From contig JBAZWN010000008.1 of NCBI GenBank assembly GCA_041660285.1, positions 6,110 through 70,109 on the forward strand: DNA of 64,000 bases. Reading direction: 5' to 3'. This stretch comes from Methylobacter sp. (lineage in GTDB: Bacteria > Pseudomonadota > Gammaproteobacteria > Methylococcales > Methylomonadaceae). A model generated the notes under the pieces. The model worked only from the letters and a program-made list of their open reading frames with translations. It made no database searches and was not told where the DNA came from. Shown piece after piece: positions 5,782 through 22,794 of the stretch (the first letter of the stretch is position 1; every line of letters starts with the position of its first letter). A program made the translations under genes and the position numbers.

Positions 5782-6966
5782 ATGGAACAATTTCATAGAA
5801 TAAGTCGCTTGCCTCCCTATGTTTTTAACATTGTTAATGAACTGAAAGCCAAGGCGCGCGCGGCAGGAGAAGATATTATCGATTTTGGCATGGGCAATCC
5901 GGATCAGCCCACGCCTGAGCATATCGTCAATAAAATGCTTGAGGCGGCAAAACGCCCCGATACCCATCGTTATTCGGTTTCCAAGGGTATACCCCGCTTA
6001 AGGAAAGCCATCTGCAACTGGTATAAAAACCGCTTCGATGTTGATCTGGATCCGGAAACCGAGGCCATTGTCACCATCGGCTCAAAAGAAGGTCTGGCGC
6101 ATTTGGCTCTGGCGACCTTGGGTCCCGGCGATGTGGTGCTGGTGCCGAACCCCGCTTATCCGATACATCCTTATGGCGTGGTGATTGCCGGCGCCGATCT
6201 GCGGCATGTACCGATGATCCCGGGCGGCGATTTCTTTGATGAGCTGAATAAAGCCATTGGCGATTCATGGCCCAAGCCGAAAATGCTGATTCTTAATTTC
6301 CCGGGCAATCCTACCAGCCAGTGCGTGGAGCTGGATTTTTTTGAAAAAATTGTCGCTATCGCAAAAGAGCATAAAATCTGGGTTGTGCAGGATATTGCTT
6401 ATGCGGACATCGTTTTTGACGGCTACAAAGCGCCGTCAATTCTTCAAGTTGAAGGCGCAAAAGACATAGCGGTAGAGTTTTTCTCGCTATCTAAAAGCTA
6501 CAACATGCCGGGCTGGCGTGTGGGCTTCATGTGCGGCAACAAATCGTTGGTTTCCGCCCTGGCTCGAATCAAGTCCTATCTGGATTACGGCACTTTCACG
6601 CCCATTCAAATCGCAGCGATTGCGGCCCTTGAAGGCCCGCAAGACTGCGTTGCAGAAATTGCCGAAATGTATGAAAAAAGACGCGATGTGCTGTGCGATG
6701 GCTTAAATGCCGCCGGATGGCCGGTTGAAAAACCCAAAGCGACCATGTTCGTTTGGGCAAAAATCCCGGATGCCTATCAAGCGATGGGGTCTCTTGAGTT
6801 CTCCAAAAAACTGCTGCTGGAGGCCAAGGTAGCGGTGGCGCCCGGTATCGGTTTTGGCCAGTATGGCGACGATCATGTCAGGTTTGGCCTGATTGAGAAT
6901 GAACACCGCACCCGCCAGGCGGTTCGCGGCATCCGCAATATGATGAAGAAAGACGGCGTTATATAA
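5782..6966 (+). CDS. alaC: PLP-dependent alanine transaminase (class I/II aminotransferase)
   Basis: [21 protein letters not shown] and [14 protein letters not shown] (PLP lysine) motifs. Confidence 0.9.
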
Positions 6967-15656: not shown

Positions 15657-16898
15657 ATGAATTCCCTATTTAAAATGCTCTTCCTGCTTATTCTGGCAAT
15701 AGCACTCAGCGGCTGCGCGAGTTTAGGCAAAGGCGTCGCCGAAGCTTTTCTGGAAAAACAGCAATCGGCCGACACGCGGCTTTGCGAAATATGGGGAAAA
15801 CCATTCCAAGGACTCTCTCCGTTCCTGAACAACCACAAAGGCAAAATGAAGGTGCTGATGGTGCATGGGGTAGGTGACCATCTGCCGGGCTACTCCACGC
15901 AATTTGTAGAAAAACTGGCTAAGGAACTTGATTTGCCGGTGATGTCGGCGCAGTACAAAAACATCACGCTGACCAGCCGGCTTGATTCAAGCAAAAACCT
16001 GGGCAACCTGAGAATCAACCGGTTGCTGAGCAAAGACAGAAGCAGGGAGCTGATGTTTTATGAATTAACCTGGTCTGTCATTACCGCCAAGCAAAAAGAA
16101 GTGCTTGTCTATGACAATTCAGGGGAATACTCCTTCCGCAGAGCGGAAGTAAACGACTTGCTGAAGAAATTCTCCAATGATACCGGCCCCGATCCCATCA
16201 TCTATCTGGGAGAGAGCAGGGAGGACATACTGGTTTCGTTCGGCCAGTCATTTTGCTGGATGATCAAAAGCGGTTGGGACGGCCTTCCTGACGACGTAAA
16301 GCAAGCCTGTTCCTTTAACGACGATGGCGCGGCAGCGAATTTGCCTGTCGATCAGTATGCTTTTGTTTCGCACAGCCTGGGCAGCCGCATCATTATCGAC
16401 GGCATGCAGCGCATTGCTGCTTTGCTGGGCGAGCGCGATGCCGATTTTGGCGAGGCTTTAAAGACCAAGGAAATCCCCATTTACATGATGTCCAATCAAC
16501 TGCCCATGCTGCAGTTGGGGCGTAAACTGCCCGATGTAAGCAACCAAAAAGCCGCATATTGCCAGCCGGGTGGCGAAAAATATAACCAGCGTATGCTGGC
16601 TAGGACGCCCATCATCGCGTTTAGCGATCCCAACGATCTTTTAAGTTACGCAATTCCTCACGGCTTTGCAGAAAAGTATCTGGATTCAAGGCTTTGCATA
16701 GATGTCACTAACATCAACATCAATGTAGCAACTATTTTTGACGCTTTCGGCCTGGGTAAAATGGCCAACCCGATCAATGCACACGTAGGTTACGATACCG
16801 ATGACAGGGTGGTTGCGCTTATCGCCAAAGGCATAGGTAATAAGAATACATCCGGGATTGTTAATGACCGCTGCCGCTGGACTGAGACAATAGACTGA
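15657..16898 (+). CDS. Lipoprotein with probable alpha/beta-hydrolase fold
   Basis: Lipobox LSGC; VHGVG, SHSLG nucleophile elbow, DLLSY and AHVGY as candidate Asp/His. Confidence 0.7.
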   Translation: MNSLFKMLFLLILAIALSGCASLGKGVAEAFLEKQQSADTRLCEIWGKPFQGLSPFLNNHKGKMKVLMVHGVGDHLPGYSTQFVEKLAKELDLPVMSAQYKNITLTSRLDSSKNLGNLRINRLLSKDRSRELMFYELTWSVITAKQKEVLVYDNSGEYSFRRAEVNDLLKKFSNDTGPDPIIYLGESREDILVSFGQSFCWMIKSGWDGLPDDVKQACSFNDDGAAANLPVDQYAFVSHSLGSRIIIDGMQRIAALLGERDADFGEALKTKEIPIYMMSNQLPMLQLGRKLPDVSNQKAAYCQPGGEKYNQRMLARTPIIAFSDPNDLLSYAIPHGFAEKYLDSRLCIDVTNININVATIFDAFGLGKMANPINAHVGYDTDDRVVALIAKGIGNKNTSGIVNDRCRWTETID

Positions 16899-17185
16899 AG
16901 GCTAAAGTAATCTGGAGCGCGCGCGAGCTCTTTTCCAGCTCTTATATTTCTCCGATATCTTAACCAGCGTGTTTAAATAAAATAAGGTTATAAATAAAAC
17001 CAGCAACGTTATCAGCGATACCAGTTTTAAGAACTTCTGGAATAACCAGTTCATTATTTCGACCTTTGAGTGCATGGATTCTTTCATGCGCTCAATTATA
17101 GCGAAGTTACGCAGGAAATGTACGTAACAATAGAGCAGAGCGTGCTGCGGTAAAAAACAGGCCGCATATACCAACTCGTAATATT

Positions 17186-17213
17186 ATTTAACATAATATA
17201 CATTATGCGAAGT
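17186..17213 (-). other. dif site (XerC/XerD chromosome dimer resolution site)
   Basis: Minus strand reads ACTTCGCATAA-TGTATA-TTATGTTAAAT: the 6-bp core and XerD arm are identical to E. coli dif (GGTGCGCATAA TGTATA TTATGTTAAAT); gene orientation flips around it. Confidence 0.95.
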
Positions 17214-17265
17214 GTAGGCATAACCCTTGCATTAGTCTGGCTTTTACTTGCAAGGAGCCAAAACC

Positions 17266-17727
17266 ATGACACAGCTAACCACCACGCTTAACAGCAGCTT
17301 TAAAGAATGGCGACAAACCGCCCAATATTCAATTGAAGATTGTCAGCGTATATTCTGCGTTACTAAAAGAACTATAAACAATTGGGAATCAGAAAGAATA
17401 AAGCCGCCCCGTGCGGTTTTTATTTGCCTAATGCTTTTTGCTGGGCGTCTCGATCACCTGGGCAAACAATGGCGAGGATTCAGAATCACGCCGGAATACA
17501 TAGAATCGCCTGAAGGTGATTTTGTGCATTGTCAGGAAATCAGAGCCTTAAGATACGCATTTCAGGCGTTAGATATAAAGCGAGACAAAATACTCAGAAC
17601 AAGTGAAAATAAACCGGAAAACGTAATATTTCTGCCAATCACAAAAAAGAAAACTAATACACACACCATAAAAAAGCGTTCAAAAATAACCGAATCAAGA
17701 CCAAGGAATAACCGGAGAAAGACATGA
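17266..17727 (+). CDS. Phage-type HTH regulator with DUF3653-like C-terminal domain
   Basis: AAGGAG RBS before ATG 17266; N-terminal XRE-like HTH (FCVTKRTINNWE); QWRGFRI...IESPEG segment typical of DUF3653 proteins. Confidence 0.75.
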   Translation: MTQLTTTLNSSFKEWRQTAQYSIEDCQRIFCVTKRTINNWESERIKPPRAVFICLMLFAGRLDHLGKQWRGFRITPEYIESPEGDFVHCQEIRALRYAFQALDIKRDKILRTSENKPENVIFLPITKKKTNTHTIKKRSKITESRPRNNRRKT

Positions 17728-18257
17728 ATTTAAAGCTAGAGATATTGATTATTATAGCCTTAATAACAACCTCAGCCTTTATCAAGGCAATAATAGAAAG
17801 CAACAATAACAAGAAAATATGGCCGTTTTACGCTAAAAAACTACTCTCACAACCTGAACAAATACTCTATTTCCGGTTACTAGAAGCTTTGCCAAACCAT
17901 ATAATTCTTGCACAAGTTCAGCTTTCTCAACTACTAGGCATTAAAAAAGGCAACAATCATCAATCATGGTTGAATCGAATCAGCAGAATGAGTGTTGATT
18001 TTGTAGTGTGCAATAAAGATTCGAGTATCGTAGCTGCCATCGAACTTGATGACGCAACACATTTAAGAAAACATCGTAAAGCAGCCGATGCCAAAAAAGA
18101 TAAGGCGCTAAATTCAGCCAACGTTCAAATAATACGGTGGCATGTAAAGTCAATACCTGACATCGTTGCCATCCAAACAAGTATTTTACCCCCTGCTCTT
18201 TCCGCCGAATCTAACGCAAAAATTCTACAAAATAGCGAAATATTAGCAAAATCCTAA
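17724..18257 (+). CDS. DUF2726 family protein
   Basis: N-terminal TM anchor; LLSQPEQ..Y..L, AQVQLSQLL, VDFVVC, AIELDDATH (PD-D/ExK-like) pattern. Confidence 0.88.
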   Translation: MNLKLEILIIIALITTSAFIKAIIESNNNKKIWPFYAKKLLSQPEQILYFRLLEALPNHIILAQVQLSQLLGIKKGNNHQSWLNRISRMSVDFVVCNKDSSIVAAIELDDATHLRKHRKAADAKKDKALNSANVQIIRWHVKSIPDIVAIQTSILPPALSAESNAKILQNSEILAKS

Positions 18258-18293
18258 ATGATTGTTTTTAAATAATAAAGTTAAAACTTTTGT

Positions 18294-18326
18294 ACAAGAG
18301 TCCACTGGTTATAGTATGTGGACTCT
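18294..18326 (-). other. Hairpin resembling the filamentous-phage plus-strand replication origin, copy 1
   Basis: 9-bp stem AGAGTCCAC/GTGGACTCT; minus strand AGAGTCCACATACTATAACCAGTGGACTCTTGT aligns at 27/33 positions with f1 ori GGAGTCCACGTTCTTTAATAGTGGACTCTTGT (f1 sequence recalled from cloning vectors). Confidence 0.65.
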
Positions 18327-18349
18327 ATGAGATCAGAAAAATTGAAGGG

Positions 18350-19120
18350 TTAGACCATGCAAGATACAATTTTCACATTTTTCAGATTGTTAGTGAAATT
18401 AACATCTGTAAACGGAGAAAATTTGAAGGCTTGAACTCCTGGAGTTCCTGCGGCATCAATATAGGAAATTGAAAGCTTTACTTCATACTCAGCTTGGGGT
18501 GTTTTGTACCGCCAATTCAATCTTTTGTCTTGTTCGTGAATCCATGAGAACACCTTTGCGAGGTTGGAGTACTCAATCTCAGGCTCATAAATGAAAACCA
18601 CATTAGTTGCTGTATTTCCGAGATTCTTGATAGATGAATAATAGTCTGCCTTGCCACCGCTGAGCGTCACGTTAACGTCATGAAAAACAAACAAAGGGCG
18701 TGCATCTCTGACTTGGCGGTCGCGTTCGAAACGGATGGTTTCGAGCTCTGCATCCATTTGCTTTCGTGAAACCTCAACCAGATTTCTTTGCTGCTCAACA
18801 GAGTTATGCAACTCTTCGGCCTGTAAATTGAGTGCGTGAGTATTCTGCCGTAATTCAATGCCCTGTTGGAAAAAGCCGAGAATTAACCAGAAAGTAGCAA
18901 GTGGACCAAATACGCCAGCCAAGAAATCGCCAATATTGTTAGGCGACAAATTCTTGATATCGCTGAGGCGATCATCGAAAAACCACCATAGCGCCCCCAC
19001 ATAAACGGCTGTGCAAACAATTGAAATCGACTCATAAATGACTAATAAATGATTATTAAAAGTAAAAGTATAAACATTGGCTGCTTCGCTGCCAATTAAT
19101 AAGCGATATGAAACTTTCAA
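18350..19120 (-). CDS. Hypothetical membrane protein with coiled coil
   Basis: Two TM segments around NNIGDFLAGVFGPLATFWLILGFFQQG, then a Gln/Glu-rich helix; start codon uncertain. Confidence 0.75.
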   Translation of the reverse strand: MKVSYRLLIGSEAANVYTFTFNNHLLVIYESISIVCTAVYVGALWWFFDDRLSDIKNLSPNNIGDFLAGVFGPLATFWLILGFFQQGIELRQNTHALNLQAEELHNSVEQQRNLVEVSRKQMDAELETIRFERDRQVRDARPLFVFHDVNVTLSGGKADYYSSIKNLGNTATNVVFIYEPEIEYSNLAKVFSWIHEQDKRLNWRYKTPQAEYEVKLSISYIDAAGTPGVQAFKFSPFTDVNFTNNLKNVKIVSCMV

Positions 19121-19517
19121 GCAGTTGCTTAGGGTGTGGATGGTGGCGAATTATGACGGATACTAGCTGTTTTCCTGATAAATGGCATACTATTACCCTC
19201 CCACGCTAAAGACTGAGCTCGTAGCGCAACCCCTCAAAGGGCTACAAAGGTGGAAACAGCCTTCAGTTTTTTCCACTAATCGGCGTGGCTTTGCTATCCG
19301 CTAAAAATACGCATGCTTTTATTATCACAATAAGATAGAAATTAGTTTTGAAAGATTCTAACGCTCTTTTAGTATAGAATTGGCAAAATTTCGACGCCGT
19401 TTCTCAGTATTGCACAGGGCTTAAACGCCTCCAACCATGCACTTAATGCTGCGAGAAATCAGGACAGATTAAAGAGTTTGTCCTGATTAATCTCAAATGA
19501 TGTAAATAATTGTAAGA

Positions 19518-19871
19518 TTACTTGGGTTTTGCCAGCTTTTCATGTGTTGCCGCTGCTTTTTCGTGTTCTTTGGCTAGCGCATCATGATGCTCAGCCATTC
19601 TTTCGTAATGCCTCATTAACTCTTTGTGTCCAGCTTTTTCATACTCTAGCGCTACCGATCTAAAATGCTCTGCCATAGCCTTGTTATGCTCTGCGTATTG
19701 CATTTCAAGTTTGGCTGACTCAGAATGCTCCTCAGGTGAGGTTGCAGGTGCAGTGATATTGTTAGTGGGATGCTCAGGAGCAGGTGAGATTTCCGCTAAC
19801 AAGGGCGCAGAAACAACACTCATACAAGCAGTCAAAACCAAACCAAGATAAGTATTTTTGTTCATAATCAT
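19518..19871 (-). CDS. Secreted His/Met-rich helical protein, candidate periplasmic metal-binding protein
   Basis: Signal peptide ending APLLA; heptad-spaced His (AEHNKAM-AEHFRSV; AEHHDAL-AKEHEKA-AATHEKL). Confidence 0.75.
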   Translation of the reverse strand: MIMNKNTYLGLVLTACMSVVSAPLLAEISPAPEHPTNNITAPATSPEEHSESAKLEMQYAEHNKAMAEHFRSVALEYEKAGHKELMRHYERMAEHHDALAKEHEKAAATHEKLAKPK

Positions 19872-20038
19872 GCTCTCCAGAGAAGTAATAAATTATTAAA
19901 CCAATTATTTTGTGTTGAGTCTGTATCGTTAAACCACCACTCAATAACATTCTCAACATCTAACACTATAGTTGTACTGCTACAAAAAAGCCAATTGAAC
20001 AGGAGTTGGCCGGAAGCTGACATTCGCAGCCAACAGTG

Positions 20039-20368
20039 TTAAGGGTTAGCTTGATGACTCGAGGTCTTCTCTCCAGAGTACTTCGGAACGTAAATCCGAT
20101 ATAGATCATAAGGCACCACAACTGTGTCGAACACAGCCGAGAAAGGTAGGTCGGCAATAAGGATGGTTGCCATTAGCCCCTTGATCCAACCTGGGGTCGA
20201 ACTCTTATCGCTAAATAGCTCGCTAGTATCTTTTACGTCCTGCTGAATACCGGGATAGACGGTCCACTCCTTATCAGAGGTTTCAGTCCTAGCGCGTATG
20301 CTTGAACAACCTAATATAAGAAAGCTCATAAAAACAACGACAACCCATCTTCCAATATCTGACTTCAT
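20039..20368 (-). CDS. YceK/YidQ family lipoprotein
   Basis: Lipobox ILGCSS; YPG then DLPFSAVFDTVVVPYD, the family signature. Confidence 0.85.
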   Translation of the reverse strand: MKSDIGRWVVVVFMSFLILGCSSIRARTETSDKEWTVYPGIQQDVKDTSELFSDKSSTPGWIKGLMATILIADLPFSAVFDTVVVPYDLYRIYVPKYSGEKTSSHQANP

Positions 20369-20452
20369 AATTTTTTCCTTTAAATCAATGAGGGAATGAA
20401 GCTGGTTACTTTTTTAAGAAATTGATCGCATCCGACGACAAAGTCAAACTGA

Positions 20453-20594
20453 TAGAAGCTTTACCGAACCATATAATTCTTGCACAAGAAGTTCAGCCGA
20501 TGTTCGAATAATACGATGGCATGTAAAATCAATCCCAGACATAGGCACCATCCAAACGAATATTATGCCCACTACTCGCCCCATCGAATCTAAC
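20453..20594 (+). pseudogene. Internally deleted fragment of a second DUF2726 gene
   Basis: 20453-20497 matches 17881-17922 and 20492-20594 matches 18113-18215, joined at a shared TTCAGC; 5' part absent. Confidence 0.85.
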
Positions 20595-20649
20595 TCTGAG
20601 GCTTAGAAAGACTTAAGTTATTGTCTTAATATTTATCAAGCTTCTGAGT

Positions 20650-20681
20650 AAGAGTCCACTGGTTTATAGTATGTGGACTCT
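20650..20681 (-). other. Origin-like hairpin, copy 2 (direct repeat of 18296-18326)
   Basis: AAGAGTCCACTGGTTTATAGTATGTGGACTCT, identical to copy 1 except for one extra T in the loop. Confidence 0.65.
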
Positions 20682-20707
20682 CCTGCCCCCTAGTACGAGT
20701 CTTTAAC

Positions 20708-21235
20708 TTAAAGGCCGTTGATCGCAGTCGGCGAACAGGGATCTAGGAAAGGTGGCGGCGTGTTCATATTGTCTCTGACAAGCAGCACGCTCTCGCCGGA
20801 ACTGCTGTTGTAGTAGAGAGGGAAATTCGCCTGCTGATCCTTCTTCGGGTCGGCTGAGGTATCGATGATGATCTTACCCGTATTGTTGGCGACCGATCCT
20901 TTCGGCACGGTCTTTGGTTGGGCCAATTGCAGAAGATAGTCGAATGACTGGTTGTTGGCGAAGTTCTGGTTGCCTGAATAGACCTTGGCGGGCGTGAAGT
21001 TGAAATCCTTAGCTCCAGGCTGGGTGTTGTCGATGGAGTTGATTTTGTAGATTACGAATAACCCATTGCTGGAAGAGCCGGTGGTGTGTGGCGAGCCCGT
21101 CGGATCACTATCGAAGAGATAGCACGTTGCAGATTCGTCATAGTGAACGGTGACGGTGTCGCTACAAGCTACCAGGCCAAGCGCCGTGGAGACCGCGATC
21201 GCGCCAAATGAAATGAATTTGCTGTATGTTTTCAT
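20708..21235 (-). CDS. Hypothetical lipoprotein
   Basis: AGGAG RBS upstream of ATG 21235; lipobox LVAC; beta-rich mature part; visibly GC-richer than its flanks. Confidence 0.75.
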   Translation of the reverse strand: MKTYSKFISFGAIAVSTALGLVACSDTVTVHYDESATCYLFDSDPTGSPHTTGSSSNGLFVIYKINSIDNTQPGAKDFNFTPAKVYSGNQNFANNQSFDYLLQLAQPKTVPKGSVANNTGKIIIDTSADPKKDQQANFPLYYNSSSGESVLLVRDNMNTPPPFLDPCSPTAINGL

Positions 21236-21608
21236 GGTAAGTCCTCTCCTAAACGTACTCAAATTATGTCTAACCATTGATTATCACCGCACAACTAAGT
21301 TGCAACTCACTATAGCCGTTAATTATCCAATGTCAAGCACAAAACCGCCTACTCCGTTGGATGATGATCACTGCATTGCCTATTTACAAGCATCATCTAT
21401 AACTTACCTTATGTTCATCGCATTGCACGGTCTTTGTCCATTTTTTAGCAGCAGGACGCTCGGGAGTAACCGGCGCAGTACTTTCCATCTTGGACACTTC
21501 ATACAGTCCCATTTTATACCTCAGCACTTTGCCAACTAAAACGCAAGCATACATTTTCTTGGGACTCTGATTATTAGGCTGTTATAGTAGCTTAGCCTCT
21601 AGATGATT

Positions 21609-21636
21609 GGCAGTTTGCTACGCGAAACAGCCCTAC
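21609..21636 (-). repeat. Possible single GTAG-type REP
   Basis: Minus strand GTAG-GGCTGTTTCGC-GTA-GCAAACTGCC: GTAG tetranucleotide followed by an imperfect hairpin. Confidence 0.35.
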
Positions 21637-21654
21637 GGATTATTTGATAAAAAC

Positions 21655-22794
21655 ATGACTAAACACCCTGAATTCCCATTAACTGACGAACTGATTTACC
21701 TTAACCATGCCGCTGTAGCGCCGTGGCCTAAAAGAACCGGCGCGGCTGTAATTAAGTTTGCCGAGCAAAATACCCGCTACGGCTCTCATTTTTATCTGGA
21801 CTGGCTGAACAAGGAAGCTGAACTGCGCACGCAGTTGCAGGCTTTGTTGAATACGCCCTCCTCTGATGATATTGCCTTGGTTAAAAACACTTCCGAGGCG
21901 CTGTCTTTTGTCGCCTACGGTTTGGACTGGCAGTCCGGCGATAACATTGTTTCCAGTAATGAGGAATTCCCTTCCAACAGGCTGCCGTGGGAATCATTAG
22001 CCAGCCAGGGCGTGGAATTCCGGCAGGCTGATCTGCATGGCGCGGATTCGCCTGAGGAAACCTTGTTTGCCCTGGTGGACAGCAACACGCGCTTGTTGAC
22101 CATCAGTTCCATACAATTTGCTTCCGGTCTGCGCATGGATCTGAAAAAAATAGGTGCATTCTGCAAGCAGCGCGGTATTTTGTTTTGCATAGATGCTATC
22201 CAGAGTATTGGCGCGGTGAAGTTTGACGTGCAGGCTTGCCAGGCGGATTTCGTCATGGCTGACGGTCATAAATGGATGTTCGGCCCTGAAGGTCTGGGCG
22301 TTTTCTACACCACGCCGGAAGCCAGGGACAAGTTAAGGCTGACACAATTTGGCTGGCACATGATGAAAGACACCCATAATTATGAAAACCAGCCGTGGGA
22401 AGCTCATCCCTCTGCCCGCCGTTTTGAATGCGGCAGCCCCAATATGCTGGGAATTCATGCGCTTTCCGCCAGTTTGTCTTTATTACTGGAAACTGGGATG
22501 GATGTTGTCGAGTCGCTGGTGCTTGAGAAATCAGACTACTTGAAGGCTGAAATTGATAAAAACGGGCAGTTGATTCTGCTGTCGCCACGACATGCGCCGC
22601 TTAAGTCCGGTATTGTCGTATTCAAACACCGGACTGTTGCCAATGAGGTGTTATATAAATACCTGCAGGACAACGGTGTGGTTTGCGCCATGCGCGGCGG
22701 CGGCATACGGTTTTCACCGCATTTTTATAATACAAACGAAGAAATTGATAAGGCGCTGGGGTTGATTGCTGCTGCTATACCCCGCTCCCGATAG
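21655..22794 (+). CDS. Class V aminotransferase / cysteine desulfurase-like PLP enzyme
   Basis: IYLNHAAVAP, DAIQS, ADGHKWMFGPEG (PLP lysine), IRFSPHFYN; ATG 21655 preferred over TTG 21607; stop lies inside a downstream repeat. Confidence 0.9.
   Translation: MTKHPEFPLTDELIYLNHAAVAPWPKRTGAAVIKFAEQNTRYGSHFYLDWLNKEAELRTQLQALLNTPSSDDIALVKNTSEALSFVAYGLDWQSGDNIVSSNEEFPSNRLPWESLASQGVEFRQADLHGADSPEETLFALVDSNTRLLTISSIQFASGLRMDLKKIGAFCKQRGILFCIDAIQSIGAVKFDVQACQADFVMADGHKWMFGPEGLGVFYTTPEARDKLRLTQFGWHMMKDTHNYENQPWEAHPSARRFECGSPNMLGIHALSASLSLLLETGMDVVESLVLEKSDYLKAEIDKNGQLILLSPRHAPLKSGIVVFKHRTVANEVLYKYLQDNGVVCAMRGGGIRFSPHFYNTNEEIDKALGLIAAAIPRSR

Follow-up and report, generated by a model that had tools for sequence, protein, structure and literature searches.

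How does a hairpin that matches the replication origin of the enteric filamentous phage f1 come to lie in the chromosome of a methanotroph, and is the likeness more than coincidence? The hairpin occupies positions 18294-18326 of a stretch of 64,000 nucleotides (nt) from Methylobacter sp. (contig JBAZWN010000008.1 of assembly GCA_041660285.1), which we call the window; the genome under study comprises 2.9 Mb in 55 contigs and is 99% complete. An earlier note on this DNA had read the hairpin as a pII-type rolling-circle origin next to dif and had proposed an undescribed inovirus lineage combining Ff-like replication with Xer integration. We consider it very probable, from comparison with related phages and prophages, that the hairpin is a genuine viral-strand origin of the pII/G2P type, orphaned in a decayed phage element that had integrated at dif.

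Read on the minus strand from 18326 to 18294, the sequence is AGAGTCCAC-ATACTATAACCA-GTGGACTCT-TGT. The stem has 9 bp, positions 18297-18305 pairing with 18318-18326, and encloses a loop of 12 nt (18306-18317); folded as single-stranded DNA it has a predicted free energy of -8.2 kcal/mol (z = -2.8). We aligned it with the fd record J02451.1, in which the origin of viral-strand synthesis is annotated as a rep_origin at base 5782. The 8-bp stem GAGTCCAC/GTGGACTC and the run AGTGGACTCTTGT are both identical in the two sequences, bearing out the description of the hairpin and of its f1/fd stem that we started from, and the loops read ATACTAT^AA in the window and GTTCTTT^AA in fd. By this alignment the equivalent of the fd nick would fall at 18311^18310, within the loop ATACTAT^AACCA, which is where it had been placed before. 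The best blastn match of a 76-nt region around the hairpin, among 2.3 Gb of phage records, was the f1/M13/fd origin itself, but at 31/38 and E = 8 this pairwise match is not significant alone, and the case for an origin therefore rests on comparative evidence. A further 186 matches of the region, to Vibrio sequences, were 19-nt chance matches in the AT-rich flank, and a literature query with the sequence string returned only vector sequences.

The closest relative came from a Phage_CRI search of genomes that hold relatives of the XafT-like protein encoded near the hairpin. In Methylobacter tundripaludum OWC-G53F all 32 of 32 nt (GAGTCCACATACTATAACCAGTGGACTCTTGT) are identical to the window, and they lie 33 nt upstream of, and on the same strand as, a rep gene encoding 401 amino acids (aa). 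The prophage containing them has the hairpin, an inverted repeat (TTGTCTCAtggTGAGACAA) and the genes of a complete inovirus, namely rep, ssb, coat, pIII, pVI, zot and pIV (secretin). Its Rep combines Phage_CRI with G2P_X_C, the two domains of pII, and aligns along the whole protein with the pII of f1, M13 and IKe at 32-34% identity; the origin of the prophage, like that of fd, folds as two abutting hairpins.

A wider scan of IMG/VR and a metagenome collection for the exact stem (pattern GAGTCCAC-N8-16-GTGGACTC) separated hairpins with f1-like loops (CT[AT]TAA, TTCTAAT and similar) from the rest. A pII homologue was present at the same locus for 62 of the 74 f1-like hairpins, whereas it was present for only 5 of 171 with other loops, and those five proved to be loop variants missed by the filter. 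All 62 linked hairpins are on the strand of rep; 47 of them lie 23-650 nt upstream of it, and the others are accounted for by circular permutation or by an intervening regulatory module. Of the f1-like hairpins, 12 lack a Rep; each of these either is the f1 origin of a vector or stands at the end of a contig. The loop also varies with the initiator: identity to the M. tundripaludum Rep is 73-100% for Reps that accompany the exact loop of the window, 45-80% for those found with related 12-nt loops and 29-38% for those found with the loops TTCTAATG and CTTTAATA. The same hairpin constitutes the annotated viral-strand origins of IKe and fd. Acinetobacter phage M02 has an identical stem, and Pseudomonas phage 42-1 a stem differing by two bases, in each case in non-coding DNA upstream of rep. 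Finally, the 85-nt 3' flank of the window hairpin aligns as a homologue of the origin regions of three inoviruses (L059, G250 and G278). Taken together, the sequence identity, the linkage to rep, the co-variation of loop and Rep, the annotated origins and the flank homology mark the hairpin as a genuine member of the pII-type origin family and not a look-alike. Judged from these alignments, its resemblance to the f1 origin is homology and not chance, and it belongs to a ACTATAACCA-loop subtype that Methylomonadaceae (methanotroph) inoviruses appear to use.

These results bear directly on the more ordinary reading of such a structure, namely that it is a bidirectional terminator or attenuator whose likeness to a phage origin is coincidental or secondary. 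The site does lie between two convergent genes, encoding a DUF2726 protein and a 256-aa protein, and its 9-bp stem is stable. Neither strand has a T-tract, however, and a terminator scan was negative; the 12-nt loop is identical to that of phage origins with unrelated flanks, the linkage to pII genes elsewhere is strictly same-strand, and a second copy of the hairpin follows a dead gene. We find the terminator scarcely credible, and the absent T-tract, the scan, the loop identity and the pII linkage all strongly disfavor it. A multi-copy REP (repetitive extragenic palindromic) element is ruled out by copy number. The exact stem pattern occurs at only two sites in the 2.9-Mb genome, 18298-18325 and 20652-20680, both within one island (the reversed-pattern control gave none), and no third copy was found genome-wide when one mismatch per arm was allowed. 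The counter-case raised in the earlier note, a multi-copy terminator or REP unlinked to Rep genes, thus does not describe this hairpin, which has two copies, no terminator call and relatives linked to pII. Both copies show the features of a nick hairpin, that is the stem GAGTCCAC/GTGGACTC and a loop of 11-12 nt with a CT(T/A)T^AA-like motif, the loop of copy 2 being 13 nt long.

The second hairpin closes a decayed second unit, spanning 20407-20681 and lying 2.35 kb farther out than the first. Fragments at 20453-20488 and 20489-20594 match 17881-17916 (94%) and 18110-18215 (78%), respectively, within the intact DUF2726 gene, and over 85 nt the flank of copy 2 still shares 78% of its bases with the origin flank of L059. 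The hairpin thus travels with the 3' end of the DUF2726 gene. Coordinates of these and the other features are collected in Table 1.

Table 1. Features of the island at dif and of its origin hairpins (window coordinates)
Feature	Coordinates	Strand	Basis and remarks
Chromosomal dif	17186..17213	-	XerC arm, central region and XerD arm on the minus strand; left boundary of the island
XafT-like protein, helix-turn-helix (HTH) + DUF3653	17266..17727	+	TTG at 17248 opens the open reading frame (ORF); likely start ATG 17266, 52 nt from dif
DUF2726 protein	17724..18257	+	PF10881, E = 9e-22; phrog_14167; N-terminal membrane helix; PD-(D/E)XK-like fold family
Origin 3' flank, TTGTACAAAAGTTT..., AT-rich	18240..18296	-	Homologous to the L059/G250/G278-type inovirus origin flank
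Putative pII-type viral-strand origin nick hairpin, copy 1	18297..18326	-	Stem AGAGTCCAC/GTGGACTCT; fold; alignment to fd; pII linkage elsewhere
256-aa membrane/coiled-coil protein, phage-associated family	18350..19120	-	phrog_9267, E = 4e-36; same strand as the origin and directly 5' of it
117-aa His/Glu-rich periplasmic protein	19518-19871	-	Between the origin copies
109-aa DUF1375 lipoprotein	20039-20368	-	Between the origin copies
Decayed DUF2726 fragment	20407..20600	+	5' end missing and part of the interior deleted; ~78% identity to copy 1; repeats D1 and D2; tblastn fragments
Putative origin hairpin, copy 2	20651..20681	-	Same stem; loop with one extra A (ATACTATAAACCA); 3' flank degenerate
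189-aa lipoprotein-like ORF	20708..21277	-	Last gene of the variable island, ahead of the conserved aminotransferase gene at 21607

The surroundings of the hairpin are those of an element integrated by the Xer system. As had been claimed, the hairpin stands next to dif, at a distance of 1.1 kb. The dif sequence is ACTTCGCATAATGTATATTATGTTAAAT, matching E. coli dif at 25 of 28 positions (shuffled sequences gave no match), and it is the sole such site in the genome and lies at the maximum, or turn, of cumulative GC skew. The host encodes XerD (390 bits) and a XerC-like recombinase, and the same dif site adjoins XafT-like genes in relatives. XafT is the Xer activation factor of the TLCphi satellite (PMC6744903), and its DUF3653 relatives mark dif-integrated elements (PMC6744903; PMC12715192). 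The XafT-like protein of the window is 153-159 aa long and matches DUF3653 weakly (E = 4.4e-4, 20.8 bits, against a Pfam cut-off of 22.4), but the domain is matched by 12 of its 16 homologues, and a WRGFRI-TPE block is conserved between it and them. In every related locus that we fetched, the XafT-like gene lies 50-110 nt from dif or a dif-like site. By analogy, we presume that the protein is an activator of Xer recombination.

Downstream, the DUF2726 gene begins 4 nt before the end of the XafT-like gene, and the hairpin follows 40 nt beyond it on the opposite strand; DUF2726 homologues likewise come after XafT-like genes in three other loci (L015, L275 and L005). The left and right flanking genes (ending at 16898 and beginning at 21607) are conserved in the genus, and the distance from dif to the right-flank gene is 0.8-1.2 kb in the closest relatives versus 4.4 kb here, from which we take 17214-21600 to be a variable island on the XerC-arm side of dif. 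GC content at 17-20 kb is 38-41%, compared with about 47% elsewhere. The locus adjoins dif, with the element starting at 17214, and has an XafT-like gene; no second junction was recognized.

Two side observations concern these proteins. The WRGFRI...TPE block of the XafT-like protein (17248-17727) resembles the WAGFXF/TPE block of Xanthomonas phages, and by that analogy the protein might bind DNA hairpins, either in addition to XerD activation or in its place. A C-terminal extension of about 20 aa (18192-18257) on the DUF2726 protein is present only here in the alignment and absent from the homologues; the DNA coding for it overlaps the homology to the phage origin flank, and the decayed second copy has it too. 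In sequence, the extension resembles a recombination junction across which the ORF reads.

The DUF3653 domain also prompts the question of whether the hairpin could be a packaging signal, or some other hairpin bound by the neighboring protein, and not a replication origin. According to a preprint, the Xanthomonas phage protein PSB15 uses the WAGFXF/TPE motif of its DUF3653 domain to bind the packaging-signal hairpin (10.1101/2024.03.19.585677), and with this motif the WRGFRI-TPE of the window protein may be compared. The same hairpin, however, is found in phages that have no DUF3653 gene (L059, G250, f1 and IKe), its counterpart in fd and IKe is mapped or annotated as the viral-strand origin, and the IKe morphogenetic signal is annotated as a separate stem-loop. 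We therefore hold a packaging role to be very improbable.

The pairing of this origin with dif recurs among relatives. The hairpin is present in 7 of 301 genomes of the family (reversed control, none), three of which contain intact prophages with pII: M. tundripaludum (G062), G278 and G250. The G250 sequence is a complete chromosome with two tandem prophages directly to the right of dif, each ending with an origin. Four genomes, namely this one (with two copies), G094, G145 and G317, have orphan origins 0.5-1.1 kb from dif, in the orientation seen in the intact prophages of G250. The order in G094 is dif, XafT-like gene and a complete origin with inverted repeat, in a genome without any Phage_CRI match; in G145 it is dif, a DUF29 gene and origin, and in G317 dif, 550 nt and origin. 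Beyond the family, we scanned the IMG/VR and metagenome loci L025-L264 for the 9-mer of the dif XerC arm (TTATGCGAA/TTCGCATAA). It lies within 150 nt on the 5' side of 26 of 72 pII-type hairpins and on the 3' side of none, against a background of 0.009 per 150 nt, and among the origins with such an arm is that of Acinetobacter phage M02, a deposited sequence. A Xer attachment site is thus a common companion of pII-type origins, and, going by these positions, origin and Xer site form a module of fixed order in many uncultured inoviruses and in Acinetobacter phage M02.

Some of these loci have features of their own. In G250 (L272 11327-11420 and L273 686-790) an inverted pair of dif-like sites surrounds a stem 37 nt past the pII-type origin, and the right chromosomal junction falls within the second site; by analogy, this pair is a forked single-strand attP of the CTXphi type. 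The orphan origin of G094 (L274 10082-10681) adjoins a 199-aa ORF in which Gp49/HigB-like toxin and HTH_37 antitoxin-like domains are fused. The G317 origin (L284 1399-1426, contig C135), with its inverted repeat, lies between dif and a partial prophage whose Rep falls in another, distant Phage_CRI clade, and a second copy of this prophage's ssb region lies 3.5 kb away; the locus combines two phage lineages at a single dif. A 5-kb contig of another assembly from the methanotroph family (L277, G155:C179) contains a near-exact f1 origin with one loop base missing and the full f1 flank, which is most likely cloning-vector contamination of the assembly.

Phages that combine Ff-like replication with Xer integration, as proposed in the earlier note, therefore do exist in relatives such as G250, but there is no inovirus here and the principle is not new. 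TLCphi encodes both XafT and a HUH endonuclease of the rolling-circle type (PMC6744903), and Vibrio inoviruses positive for XafT have been described (PMC12715192); the pairing of pII-type replication with Xer integration is already established by TLCphi, CTXphi and the XafT-positive inoviruses (PMC6744903; PMC12715192). Our search of the literature on methanotroph inoviruses found nothing relevant.

In this genome the origin stands alone. No Phage_CRI profile match was found anywhere in it, and tblastn with three Rep types, three Zot types, pIII, coat and ssb proteins of methanotroph inoviruses found none of them. The expectation of a pII-like gene near the same hairpin thus holds in relatives, for example M. 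tundripaludum and G250, but not here: no pII gene (Phage_CRI with G2P_X_C) lies in cis on the same strand, and there is no inovirus prophage (zot/pI, major coat, pIII, ssb, rep) in the window or the genome. No intact parent combining XafT, DUF2726, the origin and pII was found, and scans of IMG/VR with DUF2726, as a single protein and as an alignment, returned L015 only.

The history that we favor begins with an active phage, in which pII would bind the origin on supercoiled DNA and nick the loop at ACTAT^AACCA (18311^18310). The nick would prime displacement synthesis of the plus strand, and pII would cleave and reseal at the hairpin after one round. The region 17214-21600 would represent elements inserted at dif by means of the Xer recombinases (IMEX), most likely in two successive integrations by related filamentous phages. 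The first of these phages would have decayed, leaving the DUF2726 fragment and origin copy 2; the second would have integrated later, at the regenerated dif, and its remnant would be the XafT-like gene, DUF2726 and origin copy 1. Deletions would have removed rep, the structural genes and the outer junctions and spared the ends nearest dif. What is left next to dif would be a 1.1-kb Rep-less unit on the XerC-arm side, with the activator gene, DUF2726 and an origin pointing back to dif, and the three minus-strand genes between the origin copies could be prophage cargo. Since the genome has no cognate pII, the origin would be silent, nickable only by pII from a superinfecting relative.

Several observations weigh against this account. 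In most members of the family an 8-bp inverted repeat (beta and gamma in f1, TTGTCTCAtggTGAGACAA in M. tundripaludum) abuts the nick hairpin. We sought it as an adjacent 3' initiator-binding repeat of the form TTGTnnnn-N3-nnnnACAA, and it is absent from both window copies; the sequence there is just TTGTACAA in copy 1 and degenerate in copy 2. The intact phages L059, L120, G250 and G278, which share the flank of the window, are likewise without the 8-bp repeat, and phages of the L059/G250/G278 type carry TTG(T/G)(A/T)C(A/C)AAAGTTT in place of the long inverted repeat. Nicking and replication are documented experimentally only for the Ff and IKe members. With the assembly in 55 contigs, a contig that escaped assembly or binning could still harbor a small helper phage. 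Half-site searches and 28-mer scoring of 16500-22000 gave no second dif-like junction above 17/28, which is background, and the outer boundary of the element and its mode of integration are inferred. (A 17/28 site at 20701-20728, just past copy 2, was judged to be a chance match.) For contrast, dif and ACTTCGTATAATGTATAACATGACAAAG bracket the full prophage of XafT type found at L023 in a related genome. Lastly, the two copies share the DUF2726-origin junction at about 78% identity, yet the hairpin is intact in the decayed copy: all 28 of its stem and loop bases are kept, with one insertion, for which the expectation at 80% identity is about 0.002. This conservation hints at selection on the hairpin or at the spread of a Rep-less unit, and it fits a satellite better than it fits a remnant.

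Could the Rep-less units, then, be working satellites, either integrated miniphages or natural phagemids, whose orphan origins are nicked by the pII of a helper? Precedents are the replicative excision of CTXphi and RS1 from tandem origins and the f1 miniphages, and a further one is TLCphi (PMC6744903). In one form of this idea, replication between the direct origins would free a 2.35-kb single-stranded circle containing the genes for the 109-, 117- and 256-aa proteins in sense orientation. In another, the XafT-DUF2726-origin unit itself would circularize. In either form the helper would package the product, which would re-integrate at dif through XafT-activated XerCD. The origins are indeed direct repeats and lie on the coding strand of the three intervening genes, as release in the CTX/RS1 style needs. 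The two units share the DUF2726-origin junction, including the C-terminal extension, at about 78% identity, much as two integrations of diverged Rep-less relatives would, and the hairpin of the decayed copy is better conserved than its flanks. G094, with dif, an XafT-like gene and a complete origin in a genome otherwise free of Phage_CRI, could be a minimal unit of the same kind. On the other hand, the locus has an origin duplicated in direct orientation but no initiator, evident packaging hairpin or second Xer site. No helper was found in the genome, there is no second Xer site for excision, and the 2.35-kb circle would be without XafT or attP. The non-coding DNA at 19121-19517 has no long packaging-signal-like hairpin or unusual structure (z = -0.9), and in copy 2 the loop is altered and the flank degenerate. 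The orphan origins were found by searching for the hairpin, so that their recurrence is partly one of ascertainment, and remnants beside the essential dif would be expected to persist. On balance we think working satellites, the main alternative, unlikely. The broader proposal, that XafT-(DUF2726)-origin units form a family of Rep-less, gene-poor satellites of methanotroph inoviruses, reduced to an Xer activator for integration and a pII-type origin for replication in trans, in which helper pII spreads a 2.35-kb cassette for host-type exported proteins by way of dif, we regard as a shade more doubtful still.

Conservation of the hairpin in the decayed copy could also mean that the origin was kept for the benefit of the host, as a decoy or interference site that would titrate or misdirect the pII of incoming filamentous phages, perhaps together with the nuclease-like DUF2726 protein. 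Cloned f1 origins interfere with the growth of f1 (Ff interference). In Vibrio inoviruses, hypervariable cargo, often defense genes, lies between xafT and zot, and this is the position at which DUF2726 sits (PMC12715192). The PADLOC match of the DUF2726 protein is marginal (E = 0.008), however, the other island proteins have none, and the anatomy of the island is explained without a decoy. Such a function seems to us quite improbable, and we retain the reading of an orphaned origin in a decayed element.

The remaining contents of the island add detail to its description. The 256-aa protein has no Pfam or PADLOC match; an ORF in a 5-kb "Bacteriophage sp." record from human feces is 44% identical to it over 120 aa. 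It is probably prophage cargo. Elsewhere in the genus, homologues of the 117-aa and 109-aa genes (75-85% identical in nucleotide sequence) lie at positions that do not adjoin dif. A non-coding repeat of about 150 nt at 19244-19402 has copies that are 78-88% identical at C3:71123-71269, C7:24386-24440 and many sites across the genus. The similarity of 19328-19406 to a phage locus (L021) belongs to this genus-wide repeat and is not phage-specific. A 38-nt motif at 21604-21642, upstream of the aminotransferase gene, is 91-95% identical at many loci of the genus and occurs once more here (C5:48478-48517); a regulatory box and a short dispersed repeat are both possible readings. An Rfam scan of 16500-22000 gave only a sub-threshold match to a small RNA.

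These comparisons show that the f1/IKe nick hairpin extends beyond the phages of enteric bacteria: the inoviruses of methanotrophs, of Acinetobacter, of Pseudomonas and of many hosts not yet cultured have the same stem. The loop tracks the Rep clade, and the hairpin could serve as a simple sequence marker for pII-type origins and for predicting which initiator matches which origin. About one third of these origins have a dif-like arm beside them, making origin and Xer attachment site a common paired module. The low-GC island at the replication terminus would be explained as a graveyard of filamentous-phage elements, and the orphan origins beside dif in four genomes of the family are candidates for helper-dependent mobilization or interference.

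Among known systems, the Ff phages (f1, M13 and fd) and IKe have an identical 8-bp stem and a loop of 11-12 nt with CT(T/A)T^AA at the aligned nick, followed by CTCTTGT, and the Reps of the window's relatives are full-length orthologues of their pII. The window differs in its loop (ATACTATAACCA versus GTTCTTTAATA) and in having no adjacent 8-bp inverted repeat; its site is chromosomal and adjoins dif in a genome without gene II, whereas Ff and IKe do not integrate. As in CTXphi/RS1 arrays and in f1 miniphages and phagemids, direct origins could bracket a releasable segment, and DNA with only an origin would depend on a helper. RS1 encodes RstA, however, and the miniphages carry a packaging signal, and neither an initiator nor a packaging signal is evident in the window. 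TLCphi and the XafT-positive ("CTX-I") Vibrio inoviruses are alike in having an HTH and DUF3653 gene beside dif, variable cargo and arrays at dif (PMC6744903; PMC12715192). TLCphi differs in having its own HUH initiator (Cri) and in being flanked by a recognizable degenerate dif, the unit in the window having no initiator or second site. The uncharacterized prophage of M. tundripaludum OWC-G53F (L019, L022 and L087) has a full inverted repeat, rep 33 nt downstream, all of the morphogenesis genes and flanks unrelated to those of the window, but it resides in the same host genus and agrees with the window at every one of the 32 nt of the hairpin and the TTGT that follows it.

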